This document shows, in pieces, positions 33,084-48,090 of a DNA stretch of 64,000 nt. Both the position numbers and the translations under genes were made by a program. Origin of the DNA: Nitrososphaerota archaeon. GTDB lineage: Archaea > Thermoproteota > Nitrososphaeria_A > Caldarchaeales > Calditenuaceae. The stretch's first letter is position 1. Every line of letters begins with the position of its first letter. Under the pieces are notes generated by a model. That model worked only from the letters and a program-made list of their open reading frames with translations, searched no databases and was not told the origin of the DNA. Where the stretch lies: the NCBI GenBank assembly GCA_038845265.1, contig JAWBQR010000002.1, positions 94,609-158,608 of the forward strand, written 5' to 3'.

Positions 33084-34421
33084 TTGTCGCTGAGGGATAA
33101 ATGGGCCTCGAGGTATCTTGAGTTGACGAGGAGGTCTGAGGCGCTTTTTAGGAGGGCGTCCCAATCGATTCCAGGCGGCGTAAATTATCCGCTGAGGTAT
33201 CTCGCGCCACATCCGCTCTACGCCTCTAGGGCGGAGGGATGCTACGTATGGGACATCGACGGGAATAGATATGTTGACTACTGGATGGGGCACTTCGCCC
33301 TAATCATGGGACATGCCTATAGAAAGGTTATAGACGCAGCGAAGGAGCAGCTCGAGGTAGGCGCCCATTTCGGGCTCGAGCATGAATGGGAAGTGATGCT
33401 TGCGGAGCAGATCAAGAAGATGGTTAGAAGCGTCGAGCTCGTCAGGTTCGCGAACAGTGGAACCGAGGCAAACATGTATGCGGTCAGGGCGGTGAGGACA
33501 TATACTGGCAGGAAGGAAATAGGCAAGCTTGAGGGCTGCTGGCATGGAGGATATGACGGGCTCCACAAGGCGGTTAGCTATCCATTCGACGCGGCGTCAT
33601 CAGCTGGCCTGCCAGAAGAGGTTACTGGATTGACGGTTGTGCTTCCGTTTAACGACATAGAGGGCGCCACCAAGATAATCAGGTCTAGAAGGCTTGCAGC
33701 TGTCTTTGTCGAGCTGGTCCCCTCGCAGGGAGCCTTTAACCCAGCCGATACTGAATATGTAAAGGCGCTTCGAGAGGCGTGTGATGAGACGGGCACACTG
33801 CTGGTATTCGACGAGGTGATTACGGGATTTAGGCTCAGCCCAGGAGGAGCACAGGAAATATATCGAATATATCCGGACCTGACGGTGTTTGGAAAAATAC
33901 TTGGTGGAGGCTTCATGCCGATGGGCGCGTTCGGAGGCAGGTCCGAGGTGATGGAGCGGCTCGACCAGACCAAGTTTACTAAGCCGTCAGAGAGGTCTTT
34001 CCACGGCGGCACGTATGCAGGCAATCCTCTGGCGGCGCGCTGCGGCTACACGCTCCTAAAAGAGCTAGAGAGTGGGGAGGTTCAGGAGAGGCTCAACGGG
34101 CTGGGAGAATACGCGAGGAGGAGGCTCAGAGAAGCTGTAGAGCGCTCTGGTCTCCAGGCATATGTGACTGGTATAGGCTCACTCATCGGTCTTCAGTTCA
34201 TGTCTACGCCTCCTAGGTCGCCTAGAGACACGCTGAGCAAGATGGACAGGGAGCTCGCAGAGGCGCTATACTACTACATGCTTATCAACGGTGTGTACTA
34301 CATCTCGCCCCACGTGCCACACTTTGGGCTGAGCGCACCCCATAGGGAGGAGCACATCGATAATCTAGCCACGCTCCTAGAGGAATTCGGAGACGAAGTA
34401 AGAAGAGAGAAGAGGCACTAG
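33084..34421 (+). CDS. Class III PLP aminotransferase (glutamate-1-semialdehyde aminomutase-like)
   Basis: PGGVN, NSGTEA, WHG, FDEVITGFR, GKILGGG, HGGTYAGNP. Confidence 0.88.
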   Translation: MSLRDKWASRYLELTRRSEALFRRASQSIPGGVNYPLRYLAPHPLYASRAEGCYVWDIDGNRYVDYWMGHFALIMGHAYRKVIDAAKEQLEVGAHFGLEHEWEVMLAEQIKKMVRSVELVRFANSGTEANMYAVRAVRTYTGRKEIGKLEGCWHGGYDGLHKAVSYPFDAASSAGLPEEVTGLTVVLPFNDIEGATKIIRSRRLAAVFVELVPSQGAFNPADTEYVKALREACDETGTLLVFDEVITGFRLSPGGAQEIYRIYPDLTVFGKILGGGFMPMGAFGGRSEVMERLDQTKFTKPSERSFHGGTYAGNPLAARCGYTLLKELESGEVQERLNGLGEYARRRLREAVERSGLQAYVTGIGSLIGLQFMSTPPRSPRDTLSKMDRELAEALYYYMLINGVYYISPHVPHFGLSAPHREEHIDNLATLLEEFGDEVRREKRH

Positions 34422-34428
34422 TGAGATT

Positions 34429-34464
34429 TGTCCCACATGGGAGACACGTCACCCACGTCTTACA
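34429..34464. repeat. Array 1 of contiguous 9-bp repeats
   Basis: tgtcccaca|tgggagaca|cgtcaccca|cgtcttaca; mixed orientation of TGGGWGAYR-like units. Confidence 0.7.
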
Positions 34465-34657
34465 CGGCTTAACACTGATCGAAACAAACACCAAAAGTTT
34501 TCTGAACTTCTGCTTTATGGCCAATGATTGATTATTAGCCATTATTTATTACCCAGGTATTTTCGAGGGATATTTGAGAGTATTACGCATAGGCTGGACT
34601 CGGTTTACCTCTGGGTCAAGAATTAAATCTAAAGATCAAGTATGGCCGCTAACGATC

Positions 34658-35059
34658 TTGCCGGCTAAGCGGAGAATAAGGCTGGAGATGATGGACGAGG
34701 ATGGTGATAAGGTTACCCTAATATTTGAGGGCAGGGTGACGAGGGAGAAGCTTATCCAGCTTGCCGACTTCATCGAGCTCTACGGCGGTGGAGAAGACCC
34801 GGAAAAGCTCTACTCGGCCGAGAATAAACTGACTAAACTGGCGAGGGTGATAGAAAAATATTTCCCAATGTCTTCCTTCACCTCTAAGGATGCGTTGGAG
34901 AGCTACGTGGCTGAGTATAAAGAGCCCATAACTCTCAGCACAGTCTCGACTTATCTCTCGAGGCTGGCCGAGAGGGGCTTCCTAGAAAGAATCTCCGGCT
35001 CGCAGGTCATTAAGTACAGAATAATGAGGGAGAAAGCCGTACAGACAAACGGTGAGTAG
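34658..35059 (+). CDS. Conserved hypothetical protein with C-terminal winged HTH
   Basis: LSTVSTYLSRLAERGFL recognition helix and wing; likely TTG start (MPAKRRIRLE) about 30 nt after AATTAAAT; the track starts it at 34574. Confidence 0.75.
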   Translation: MPAKRRIRLEMMDEDGDKVTLIFEGRVTREKLIQLADFIELYGGGEDPEKLYSAENKLTKLARVIEKYFPMSSFTSKDALESYVAEYKEPITLSTVSTYLSRLAERGFLERISGSQVIKYRIMREKAVQTNGE

Positions 35060-35061
35060 AT

Positions 35062-35463
35062 TCACTTTTTGGTCATGCTTTTCAGCCGTGTCTGCATCTC
35101 CTCCAGTAGGAGTATTGCCTCGTCTATTCTTCCATCCCTGACCGCTTCTCCCAGCTCGATGAACCACTTCTGCTTCTCGTCCTGGAGCAGACCTACATAG
35201 CTAAGAAGAATGACGGTGAACAGGGCTTGAGAGATGTTTCCGAGGGCTTGTGATAGGATTCTCGCGTAGCTTCCCTTAGTAATACCCATCAGGCCTGCCT
35301 TCTCCGATAATTTCAGCTCACTCGTCTCCTCGGATGCCTCAATCAGCAGCGCCTCGAGCTGCCTCTCGGTCAGTGAGCACCGCTCTGCGAGCATTCTTAA
35401 AAACGGGTCTTCCCGCCATTTCTGCCTTATTTCCTCGAGTATGACAAGCTGGGAACTCTCCAC
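35062..35463 (-). CDS. Hypothetical HTH protein downstream of parA
   Basis: LTERQLEAL...LSEKAGLMGITKGSYARIL resembles a sigma4/LuxR-like HTH. Confidence 0.7.
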   Translation of the reverse strand: MESSQLVILEEIRQKWREDPFLRMLAERCSLTERQLEALLIEASEETSELKLSEKAGLMGITKGSYARILSQALGNISQALFTVILLSYVGLLQDEKQKWFIELGEAVRDGRIDEAILLLEEMQTRLKSMTKK

Positions 35464-35508
35464 TCCTCCGTCTCCTCCCTGCTAGACAAATTTGTAAACC
35501 ATGCCTAC

Positions 35509-36360
35509 CTAAAAAGTAATTCTATCCATTTCTTCGCTCTTCCGCATCGTGGTAATACTCGGAGAACTCGCGGGGCTCGTAAGCCTACTGATGACCTCTA
35601 AGGCCAGCTCTAGGTACGCATTCGCCACCGGCGTGTCAGGAGCATATGTCACGACCGGGCTGCGGTAGAAGTGCCCCTCCTCAACCCTGACGCTGCTCGG
35701 TATCTCGGAGCGAAGCAGCCCGTCGCCGAGTCTCGCCCTCAAGTCTTCCCTCACCTCATGCGTAATCTTGTACCTGTTATCGACCATTGTTAGGAAGTGT
35801 CCGAGTATCTCTATTCTTCTTCCAAGCCTCGTCCTCATGAGCTCGATTATCTTATAGAGCCTCCTGAGCCCCTCGATGCTGTATAGCCTCGGCTGAATAG
35901 GCACCAGTAAGTAGTCTGCGGCATATATGGCGTTGAAGGTGAGGACTCCTAGGCTCGGGGGCGTATCGATGAGAACAGCGTCATAGCCAGAGACTTCTCC
36001 GTCCAGCGCTGCCCTGAGTACTGCCTCTCTGCCCGGCTGCCTGGCGAGATGCTCCTCCACGGCCGCCAGGTCCTCATTGCTAGGGACAATCCTAAGACCA
36101 CCGATGGAGGTCTCATGAATTACCTCGGATAACTTCCTTACACCCATCAATGGCGCAGCTATTGTCTCGGAGGTGCTGAGAGGCTTGACTCCCAGCGAGA
36201 GCCCTAGATGTCCCTGAGGATCCATATCTATCAATAATACCTTGAAGCCGTGCCTCGATGCCAAGGCGGCTGAGAGATTAATCACGCTCGTAGTCTTGCC
36301 GACTCCTCCCTTCTGATTGGTTACTGCTATCACCCACGTCATACTTGTGGCACCTGTCAC
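35509..36360 (-). CDS. parA: ParA/Soj-family Walker-type partition ATPase
   Basis: Deviant Walker A NQKGGVGKTT, IDMDPQG, Walker B IDTPPSLG; alternative ATG start at 36342. Confidence 0.93.
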   Translation of the reverse strand: MTGATSMTWVIAVTNQKGGVGKTTSVINLSAALASRHGFKVLLIDMDPQGHLGLSLGVKPLSTSETIAAPLMGVRKLSEVIHETSIGGLRIVPSNEDLAAVEEHLARQPGREAVLRAALDGEVSGYDAVLIDTPPSLGVLTFNAIYAADYLLVPIQPRLYSIEGLRRLYKIIELMRTRLGRRIEILGHFLTMVDNRYKITHEVREDLRARLGDGLLRSEIPSSVRVEEGHFYRSPVVTYAPDTPVANAYLELALEVISRLTSPASSPSITTMRKSEEMDRITF

Positions 36361-36372
36361 CCATGGGTGATT
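36328..36372. repeat. Array 2 of contiguous 9-bp repeats at the RHH/parA junction
   Basis: tatcaccca|cgtcatact|tgtggcacc|tgtcaccca|tgggtgatt; contains the perfect 14-bp palindrome TCACCCATGGGTGA. Confidence 0.7.
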
Positions 36373-36650
36373 TTCTCCTCGAGCTCTTTTAGCCCGAGCC
36401 TCACGGCGGCCCTTAGAACCTTCGATGTTATTCCTCTCCTATCGGCGATTACTCCCTGCTCCTCAGCTATCTTCTCCACGATTCTGAGAAGCCTCTCGTG
36501 ATCCTCATGATCTATGTAGAAGTGTACTTTCTTCATCTTCGGCTTCGCGCTGACTCTTGCCTCTTCATGTCTCTTGCCGCTCTCACCTATCATCTCTTCG
36601 ACGCTGGGTAGAAGAGACTCGAGATAACCCGTGGGCAGTCTCCTACTCAT
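36357..36650 (-). CDS. Putative ribbon-helix-helix centromere-binding protein (ParG/omega/SegB-like architecture)
   Basis: Flexible N-terminal tail, beta-strand KKVHFYI, helix DHEDHERLLRIV, second helix TSKVLRAAVRLGL; overlaps the parA start. Confidence 0.7.
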   Translation of the reverse strand: MSRRLPTGYLESLLPSVEEMIGESGKRHEEARVSAKPKMKKVHFYIDHEDHERLLRIVEKIAEEQGVIADRRGITSKVLRAAVRLGLKELEEKITHG

Positions 36651-36671
36651 GATAAGGAGTAGCCGCTCTCA

Positions 36672-36681
36672 GTTATAAAAA
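36672..36681 (-). promoter_or_regulatory. TATA box of the RHH-parA operon
   Basis: TTTTTATAAC on the minus strand, 22-31 nt upstream of ATG 36650 and abutting repeat array 3. Confidence 0.65.
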
Positions 36682-36753
36682 TAGGAGATATGGGTGACGT
36701 GGATGATATGTCTCATATGCTACCCATAGCATACATGGGTGATACCTCATCTA
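36682..36753. repeat. Array 3: eight contiguous 9-bp repeats upstream of the RHH-parA promoter
   Basis: taggagata|tgggtgacg|tggatgata|tgtctcata|tgctaccca|tagcataca|tgggtgata|cctcatcta. Confidence 0.8.
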
Positions 36754-47325: not shown

Positions 47326-48090
47326 CAACCCAGAACAATGGGTTGGACCATATCTTCGCCCTCGAGTTCATCTTCAAGTCGCTCTAAGGCGCCCGGCGTA
47401 TGGTCTCTGAGGCGCCCACCCGCCTCTCAATCTCAGAGACTATATCACTCAGGCTGTACTTTCTATCAGATGATAATTGATACGCCTTTTCAAGAAGTCT
47501 CCTGAATCCCTCGGCGCTTTTATGCTCTTTCCTCTCTAATCCTTCCACTATCTCTGCGAATCGTTCGAACTCGCTCCACTTAATTATTGGTTTATGCTTT
47601 CTGAAGAATGGGATTATCTTCTCAACGAGGCTTTTTCGCGCATCGACGATGTATTGAAGCGTTGTATCTTCCTGTCCCGGCTTAGGTATGATTCTTCCAC
47701 AGCTAAATGTTCTCTTCAGGATCTCAAGCACTATTCTCTTCTCAGCGCTCTGTGTCACATGGAATACAGGGTCGATAACCCATCCAAACCGCGCGCTGTC
47801 TTGTTTTTTAATGGATATTGAGAAGCATCCTTCACCGTCTACAAGGCCAACTATATAGTAGTTTAGGTATTTCCTTCTGCTTGGCAGACGTCTAGGGTCA
47901 ATCAAGTCTCTGAACTCATTAAGCAATTTTTGCTACACCACATAGTATCCTTCGTAGTGTTTCTTTAATAATTTGAGGCGAGTGGTTCCCTGCGGGTCGG
48001 GGTCATCTGGTCAACCTATGTTCCCTGCTCGGGAGGCTGACCAGTCCATCCTTCCCCGCATATAGCCGGGTTTAACGACTCCCTAACTCG
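47326..48090 (-). mobile_element. Group I intron (765 nt) at about LSU position 1923 (E. coli numbering, inferred)
   Basis: Splits GACTCT^CTTAAGGTAGCC; P1 GACUCU/GGAGUC with U-G at the splice site; P3 CCCGGC/GCCGGG; P4 UGCGGG/CCCGCA; P7 GACCA/UGGUC; S element AAGAUAUGGUCC; terminal G. Confidence 0.93.
47384..47926 (-). CDS. Intron-encoded single-motif LAGLIDADG homing endonuclease
   Basis: YIVGLVDGEGCF, FHVTQ, FSCG, IIPFF. Confidence 0.93.
   Translation of the reverse strand: MLNEFRDLIDPRRLPSRRKYLNYYIVGLVDGEGCFSISIKKQDSARFGWVIDPVFHVTQSAEKRIVLEILKRTFSCGRIIPKPGQEDTTLQYIVDARKSLVEKIIPFFRKHKPIIKWSEFERFAEIVEGLERKEHKSAEGFRRLLEKAYQLSSDRKYSLSDIVSEIERRVGASETIRRAP

Follow-up and report, generated by a model that had tools for sequence, protein, structure and literature searches.

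Our knowledge of chromosome segregation in archaea comes from SegAB, HpaAB and one plasmid system alone. Among type Ib partition systems, delta/omega/parS of S. pyogenes pSM19035 combines a Walker-type ParA with a ribbon-helix-helix (RHH) type partner that has an N-terminal tail; omega dimers bind 7-10 contiguous heptads of mixed orientation over promoters, and activation of the ATPase needs at least four gap-free units (PMC9499535). We have analyzed a 64,000-nucleotide stretch of DNA from a Nitrososphaerota archaeon (the window; positions 94,609 to 158,608 of contig JAWBQR010000002.1), in which the gene for a 97-residue protein precedes a parA gene and three arrays of abutting 9-bp units lie in and around the pair (Table 1). 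This is probably a chromosomal partition locus of a type Ib-like, delta/omega-like kind belonging to one Aigarchaeota family, in which the arrays provide both an operator and a clustered centromere. The gene pair, the arrays, and their co-occurrence and conservation are established from the sequences, and a role in segregation is likely.

The locus has two traits of type Ib systems: iterated contiguous sites, one set of which overlaps the par promoter, and a short deviant-Walker ParA without an N-terminal helix-turn-helix (HTH). As in delta/omega, a ParA is paired with a probable RHH-type partner carrying an N-terminal tail, and several contiguous arrays of mixed orientation, with at least four units each and presumably one dimer to a unit, include one over the promoter (PMC9499535). 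The delta/omega-like architecture proposed by an earlier reading of the letters alone (the sequence-only reading) is supported by these features. The locus differs in being chromosomal and archaeal, in having pseudo-palindromic 9-bp units in place of the 7-bp WATCACW (PMC9499535), and in that the partner gene comes first and overlaps parA, with one array within coding sequence. ParA matches delta with E = 3e-11, compared with 1e-51 for a Soj-type ParA, and the small-protein profile did not match omega at E ≤10 in a PDB search.

SegAB/segS of the Sulfolobales, with homologues in the Thermococcales and Methanobacteriales, is likewise a chromosomal operon of overlapping genes for a ParA and a small RHH protein. 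SegB has a conserved N-terminal peptide, a variable linker and a C-terminal DNA-binding domain, with sites at promoters (PMC12139799, PMC12284271). The nearest named relatives of the present ParA (44-47% identity) come from the Thermococcus species group with reported SegB; SegB is reported to sit beside ParA in Thermococcus and to be missing from Thermoproteota outside Sulfolobaceae (PMC12139799). However, segA comes first in SegAB, the ParA of the window lies outside the Sulfolobales SegA clade, and the sites are clustered at one locus here compared with about 39 peaks around the chromosome (PMC12139799, PMC12284271). The 13-bp SegB site TCTAGA-S-TCTAGA (PMC12284271) does not occur at the locus; the single window match departs from it at two positions and falls within a gene (38036), and the genome has one with no more than one mismatch. 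HpaAB/hpaS3 of Haloferax volcanii pHV3, compared by its description, also has an archaeal ParA and, in an overlapping operon with it, a partner predicted to be an RHH protein whose N-terminal helix binds ParA, but parA is first, the replicon is a secondary chromosome, the six sites are dispersed and AT-rich, and the ATPase is MipZ-like (PMC13722703).

The N-terminal peptide of the small protein ends in the same hydrophobic pattern as the bacterial ParB tails that we examined. Bacterial parS is a 16-bp palindrome, in contrast to the 9-bp arrays found here. As in bacterial ParABS (Soj/Spo0J), the ATPase is of Soj type and keeps the basic DNA-binding residues, and the locus is near the origin in several relatives, but the partner is not a ParB CTPase clamp, its peptide has no central arginine, and ParA lacks the Tyr81/Glu82/Glu117 site (PMC12462528). 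No ParB/Srx CTPase-fold partner lies next to parA in this assembly.

The arrays of 9-bp units

The three arrays were found where the sequence-only reading had placed them, in 9-bp register and mixed orientation (eight, five and four units), and a weak fifth in-phase unit at 34420-34428 lengthens the third (four units at 34429-34464). A matrix built from all 17 units was scanned for 9-bp phasing over the source assembly (1.37 Mb in 34 contigs, 93% complete; the window lies on a 158.6-kb contig). The three arrays ranked 1-3, and did so in each test in which one array was left out. With a matrix made from 98 units at seven loci of other genera only, their five-unit scores were 46.7 (34420), 43.8 (36682) and 42.9 (36328), the next site in the assembly scoring 16.1. 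Phasing of 10, 11 or 12 bp gave a best five-unit score of no more than 19.2, and 40 column-shuffled matrices reached 31.9 at best, with a mean of 21.2. The sequence-only reading had noticed no such arrays elsewhere in the window, and this extends to all of the assembled DNA; further arrays are possible in the unassembled part. The best remaining score in the genome came from near the end of another contig (C18:8976-9011), at a two-copy 18-bp tandem repeat with one good 9-mer per copy, possibly a weak fourth site or a chance match.

The consensus unit is TGGGTGACR (T-G-G/T-G-T-G-A-C/T-A/G across loci, from 294 units with near-duplicate loci included), with the symmetric form YRKSWSMYR. It is close to a 4-1-4 palindrome, so that a two-fold symmetric dimer could sit on it in either orientation. 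No array here falls below the four contiguous units that activation requires in pSM19035, and we count this in favor of partition.

Array 1 occupies the 121-bp gap between a hemerythrin stop codon and the small gene, immediately upstream of a TATA-like box which it touches, as had been noted earlier, and the operon transcript is probably leaderless. In genus g4 the TATA-like box, some 30 bp ahead of the ATG, occupies the place of one 9-bp unit in the promoter array. Because the box lies within the array there and abuts it in the window, an operator role for the promoter array is well supported, and this part of the original interpretation stands on firm ground. RNA runs gave no reads from three raw-read runs and five short pieces from one contig-level run, and have no bearing on expression or the start site.

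Array 2 overlies the final codons of the small gene together with the beginning of parA, where a GTG start overlaps the stop of the small gene and an alternative ATG is found at 36342; the open reading frames (ORFs) overlap by 4 bp, and the overlap with an intact ParA seen in the sequence-only reading is thereby confirmed. The residues encoded across the array are TGATSMTWVI here, VTCVTWVI in g4 and DVTYLPRHPLRIS in L003. The 9-mers stay in phase between genera though these N-terminal residues of ParA change, and the last units are flipped in L003. That phase is kept while residues differ places the selection on the DNA. We considered that the arrays might be the by-product of a protein repeat (9 bp being three codons). 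This was rejected, since most of the DNA in arrays 1 and 3 is non-coding, and array 2 stays while the encoded residues and the orientation change.

Array 3 begins at an aminotransferase stop codon, with the likely winged-helix gene promoter about 160 bp downstream. The array is preserved in all four aligned sequences, in which the adjoining spacer is variable. Neither array 2 nor array 3 is at a promoter. Sites so placed fit a centromere, and auxiliary operators are also possible.

The arrays might then be operators only, main and auxiliary and perhaps looping, of an RHH autorepressor, with ParA positioning some other cargo, for example the division site or a protein complex. In G005 and G011, genes for a KaiC-like ATPase and a secretion ATPase are found within a few kb of the module (Pfam was run on the G005 genes only), in an order that we take to be archaellum-like. 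The best-conserved arrays do touch or enclose the TATA box and the second start of the operon. In addition, SegA contacts the division protein CdvA (PMC12858884). We regard this account as unlikely. A plain repressor has no need of a conserved ParB-like N-terminal peptide, array 3 sits 2 kb off with no evident promoter, and the secretion-ATPase neighborhood is absent from the other loci listed and from the window.

Table 1. Features of the locus in window coordinates
Feature	Position	Strand	Assignment or evidence
Array 1: eight abutting 9-bp units, mixed orientation	36682..36753	none	Operator (well supported) and candidate parS
TATA-like box TTTTTATAA	36673..36681	minus	Sequence; 23-31 bp before ATG; abuts array 1
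97-aa putative centromere-binding protein and autorepressor	36357..36650	minus	Alignment A1, structure model, weak RHH-family matches
Array 2: five abutting units	36328..36372	none	Candidate parS or auxiliary operator
Soj-type ParA ATPase	35509..36360	minus	Pfam AAA_31, E = 2e-51; best PDB matches 8ray and 1wcv
133-aa HTH-like gene	35062..35463	minus	Downstream of parA; conserved
Winged-helix-like core gene	34574..35059	plus	Conserved; start probably at TTG 34659
Array 3: four strong units and one weak	34420..34464	none	Candidate parS, no evident operator role

ParA and the small protein

The ParA orthologues (277-283 residues) have an invariant deviant-Walker sequence KGGVGKT at residues 17-23. 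Walker A and motif 2 are invariant, as are K17, K22, D45, D47 and R196, and residue 225 is always basic. Retention of the catalytic and DNA-binding residues is counted for a partition function. The best PDB matches are 8ray (E = 1e-51), which by its residue numbering appears to be M. xanthus ParA, and Soj 1wcv (1e-44), well ahead of 7dut (8e-14), which we take to be SegA, and of delta 2oze (3e-11). The Thermococcus proteins mentioned above are the next relatives in the databases, and may be the ParAs that sit beside SegB. In a quick FastTree tree of 97 sequences, midpoint-rooted and from a sample biased to close matches, the ten orthologues form one clade (support 1.0) within a group that includes Thermococcus ParAs, two ParAs of G028 and P0040 (0.89). 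The group has no clear branching order inside it and stands apart from 15 Sulfolobales-type SegAs. By these comparisons ParA is Soj-like, nearer to that of the Thermococcales than to Sulfolobales SegA. Its Soj type, rather than a delta- or SegA-like one, had been overlooked.

In M. xanthus the central arginine of ParB binds ParA Tyr81, Glu82, Asp110 and Glu117 (PMC12462528). Counted along the 8ray alignment these correspond to residues 68, 69, 97 and 104 of the present ParA. Tyr or Phe occupies position 68 in all 67 of the other Soj-like sequences tabulated and in none of the ten orthologues, which also have no acid at 104.

An alignment of 14 small-protein sequences (A1; 25 invariant columns) has an N-terminal peptide (residues 3-18), a linker of variable length, a strand-like KVHFY segment and two long helices. 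Within the peptide R3, R4, P6, Y9, L10, P15 and E18 are invariant. A monomer model with a predicted local distance difference test (pLDDT) score of 73.5 has helices at 48-65, 71-85 and 87-95. Family searches gave no family above cut-off. Below it were Tra_M (4 of 14 members, best E = 0.03), RHH_7 (2 of 14, E = 0.047), ORF56 (E = 0.19), an Arc-like PHROG (E = 0.16), and CopG, MetJ and CB_ParB_C Atlas clusters (0.85-0.91). The PDB profile search with A1 gave six matches at E ≤10, none of them relevant. The weak matches agree in pointing to RHH families, and the small protein is probably an RHH protein, with its domain at about 40-92.

The C-terminal signature published for SegB, K/R-D/N-P-K/R-I-G/T-V/L-WS-Y/P-P/E (PMC12139799), is carried by the SegB proteins that we examined and is absent from the small protein, in which the segment reads KKVHFYID or RKVHFYxD in all 14 sequences. 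HHalign of A1 with nine SegB sequences matched 17 columns over helix 2 (probability 11.9%, E = 0.0025), which may be a generic RHH likeness. With the signature absent and the profile match so short and improbable, the small protein is not taken to be SegB.

The peptide ends L-E/D-x-L-L-P, which can be compared with I-D-A-L-L-P in three Chloroflexota ParB tails and L-D-F-L-L at the start of SegB, and has no arginine where ParB has its central one. Prediction of a ParA-small protein complex gave a score of 0.45 compared with 0.00 for the best control, with a partner pLDDT of at least 63 and runs agreeing in at least 46% of contacts. In calibration, 116 of 157 solved complexes passed this mark, as did 2 of 215 mismatches, but at scores of 0.60 or below only 18 of the 157 did so, along with both mismatches. 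The prediction lends weak support to an interaction, and may pass by likeness, ParA-peptide complexes being a textbook type.

If the locus acts in partition, dimers of the small protein would each bind one 9-bp unit in either orientation, packing side by side on runs of 4-8 units. Binding to the promoter array would repress the operon, and the two or three arrays within about 2.3 kb would make up one clustered centromere. The N-terminal peptides displayed on the arrays would bind nucleoid-associated ParA-ATP dimers and trigger hydrolysis, which would move sister loci apart or hold them apart, usually near the replication origin.

Distribution and chromosomal setting

Of 76 genomes of the class, 11 encode the small protein, namely all three of this genus, the one g3 genome and seven of eight in g4; there was none in the seven genomes of g2, in the same family, or in the 57 of three other families. 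In G007, the g4 genome without the module, the 133-aa HTH gene is at a contig start and the absence may therefore be an assembly gap. A ParA orthologue (at least 57% identity) is present in the same 11 genomes of 61 searched, and is confined to this family among 401 genomes of the phylum. The module is thus limited to part of one family, a point that escaped the earlier reading. The A1 profile found three clusters, all close kin, among 1.84 billion representatives. Since the kin are not independent, the 11 occurrences go back to a single gain that was then inherited vertically.

The arrays travel with the genes. In a survey of 23 loci, several of them near-duplicates and with L040, L044, L048 and L049 left aside, a promoter array scoring at least 20 was present in 20 of the 21 loci with the small gene, the exception (L041) having a weak array only. 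The junction array was present in all 20 loci that span the junction, and the small gene was first in 20/20 loci with both genes, so that the reversed order holds throughout. In the five loci with the synteny of the window (the window itself, L001, L002, L138 and L139) a third array is placed beyond the HTH pair; it is found just after the 133-aa gene in L003 and about 750 bp upstream in L041, and the remaining loci of the survey gave none. With the matrix, all seven loci with a ParA orthologue scored 31-43, and 81 loci without one (444 kb, including HTH-pair and SegAB loci) scored no more than 18.1. Conservation of motif and synteny in relatives, proposed earlier as a check, thus holds in part of one family only. 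A four-unit IUPAC pattern placed 28 of its 31 matches in the 11 module genomes at the locus. The pattern is noisy: it matched 15 of the 65 genomes that lack the module, its reversed control matched 26 of 76 genomes, and it missed G001, whose arrays score 36.5 by matrix. L148 and L149 were rejected as module loci, being spurious 27-residue matches without arrays.

Two genomes have peculiarities of their own. G017 has two module copies (C22 and C40), of which the C40 copy is nearly identical to that of G018 and may be bin contamination. In G011, about 1.4 kb of extra DNA lies between parA and the 133-aa gene (L041:7717-9133, gene orientation), the promoter array is weak, and a six-unit array is found about 750 bp upstream beyond a DUF6512 gene (L041:7934-7987, gene orientation).

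The module lies among core genes, namely those for PCNA, primase, GINS and CCA-adding enzyme together with pyrimidine and pyridoxal-phosphate genes, and the chromosomal housekeeping setting originally described is borne out. The contig carries chromosomal core genes and the neighborhood is the same in three genera, which is not the setting of a plasmid or prophage. The window had also been said to hold no integrase or other mobility gene. No integrase is found among the 49 + 12 window ORFs scanned, but a LAGLIDADG endonuclease is present (47384-47926, minus strand). It lies inside an insertion of about 760 bp (47326-48089) in a highly conserved rRNA-like region that is 89-95% identical to, and uninterrupted in, G004 and G005. 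This is probably an rRNA intron with a homing endonuclease, unrelated to the ParA module.

It could still be supposed that an ancestor of the family captured a partition cassette from a plasmid or provirus, and that this is now a passenger or has a minor role, and is not the segregation system of the chromosome. The architecture is plasmid-like and the range narrow, and the same ParA lineage occurs with other partners (in G028, and with SegB in Thermococcus, PMC12139799), suggesting modules moving between replicons. Yet three genera, whose ParAs are 55-85% identical, have kept the module intact at a single chromosomal site; viral contigs and 72,556 plasmid records gave no relative of the small protein, and the scanned ORFs included no integrase. 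Capture with so minor a role seems to us decidedly improbable; a mobile origin as such is compatible with a chromosomal role at present.

Neither the winged-helix gene nor the 133-aa HTH gene gave a match above the Pfam or NCBIfam cut-off. The former is present in 72 of 76 genomes of the class and 131 of 201 of the phylum. In 11 of 20 hand-picked regions of Thermoproteota it is beside cdc6, divergent across a gap (L110, L111, L114-L117, L122-L124, L127 and L129); of the other nine, two ran into a contig end and seven had no cdc6. Six of seven such gaps had matches like the origin recognition box (ORB), and the seventh, mis-cut into a gene, also had one. The 133-aa gene follows parA in all orthologous loci long enough and is often near the winged-helix gene. 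It is found in loci without parA also, and so is probably not part of the partition system. Both are, on this evidence, core genes that flank cdc6/oriC in other Thermoproteota, as the sequence-only reading had not recognized, and are candidate origin-associated factors. Given this position of the winged-helix gene elsewhere, the module was probably inserted in an ancestral origin-flanking cluster, from which cdc6 has shifted away in this family. cdc6 lies 16-20 kb from the module in G005, G011, G013 and G018 and on another contig in six module genomes, this one included; ORB-like boxes are upstream of it in G005, G011, G013 and G004. The arrays themselves are not a replication origin, since ORB-like boxes, scored with what we take to be the ORB motif, are found upstream of cdc6 on contig C7 and not in the window. 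In this genome the G+C content is about 0.50 in C2 (120-150 kb), C7 (40-70 kb) and C5, and 0.37-0.42 elsewhere, and high-G+C zones contain or border both the ParA module and the cdc6 origin.

In G028, of another family, a cassette of a different Soj-like ParA and a downstream 132-aa ORF lies about 2 kb from the same HTH pair (L046:8925-10141, C35). The ORF product starts Arg-Arg-Leu and by eye has an RHH-like pattern, and a long gap without clear genes lies upstream. The cassette has no 9-bp arrays of this type, and its downstream ORF has no homology to A1 (probability 0.3%). This unrelated cassette hints that the site of the HTH pair attracts partition modules.

Weight of the evidence and its meaning

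Several observations weigh against a partition locus of the kind proposed. The RHH assignment of the small protein rests on sub-threshold matches. The structure prediction suggested by the sequence-only reading returned the helices, but the monomer model has no strand and no significant match to an RHH fold; the strand of RHH proteins forms only in the dimer. Foldseek of the monomer gave no match at E ≤0.001, with the TraM DNA-binding domain 16th at E = 9.2, and VIA-align gave a best Z of 5.0, to helical proteins, with no RHH among the best 50 matches. ParA is without equivalents of M. xanthus Tyr81, Glu82 and Glu117, the mediators of ParB-driven activation, so that activation by the peptide is not assured; loss of this site and of the peptide arginine may mean that the two proteins co-evolved or that activation was lost. 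The module is dispensable for the order, given its distribution, and the position of the third array is not conserved outside this genus. cdc6 is 114 kb from the module in G004, and in the present genome the ORB-bearing cdc6 is on C7, at least about 67 kb off. Lastly, a gene with ParB_N and HTH domains lies 2-3 kb from the module in G005 (L037:5718-6548) and G009 (L038:9062-9754).

A ParB_N gene is also found about 25 kb from the module in G011, and the G005 protein begins directly with the ParB_N domain. In the present assembly there is no match to ParB_N (PF02195), within its 93% completeness, and no full SegB homologue was found. With the constant position of the 133-aa HTH gene after parA, the nearby ParB_N gene of two genomes raises the question of whether another protein, a neighboring HTH or ParB-fold protein, reads the 9-mers and the small gene is incidental. 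We think this very improbable. The arrays track the small gene, and the lack of a ParB_N match in this assembly argues the same way. As sites of the HTH pair the arrays were rejected, since loci with HTH genes but no ParA orthologue carry no arrays.

A delta/omega-like partition locus with operator and clustered centromere therefore remains our preferred interpretation. Literature searches, which mostly exclude subscription papers, found no published description of the locus, and it is apparently a conserved, undescribed variant of the RHH/ParA kind. We raise tentatively, as a proposal that may well fail, that it is a third, independently assembled archaeal segregation system. This would combine a Soj-type ParA and a new RHH protein with a single clustered centromere of 9-bp units, partly in its own coding sequence, in an ancestral oriC-flanking cluster. 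It would have its own route of ATPase activation, given that ParA has lost the Tyr/Glu site and the peptide, with the central arginine gone, now has an invariant tyrosine preceded by an Arg-Arg pair. Considered with SegB of the Thermococcales and the downstream partner in G028, one archaeal ParA lineage would then be seen to swap its centromere-binding modules.

The locus offers a candidate segregation system in an Aigarchaeota family for which each of the three parts can be named, down to the exact putative binding sites. Both proteins are small and of hot-spring origin, so that assays of binding, ATPase activity and plasmid stability are feasible without culturing the host. If the interpretation is correct, the junction array would be a clear case of DNA sites shaping the N-terminal sequence of a protein, and the pair would provide a test of ParA activation without the conserved Arg-Tyr contact. 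It would also mean that in these archaea a contiguous-array centromere in the style of omega can serve a chromosome.

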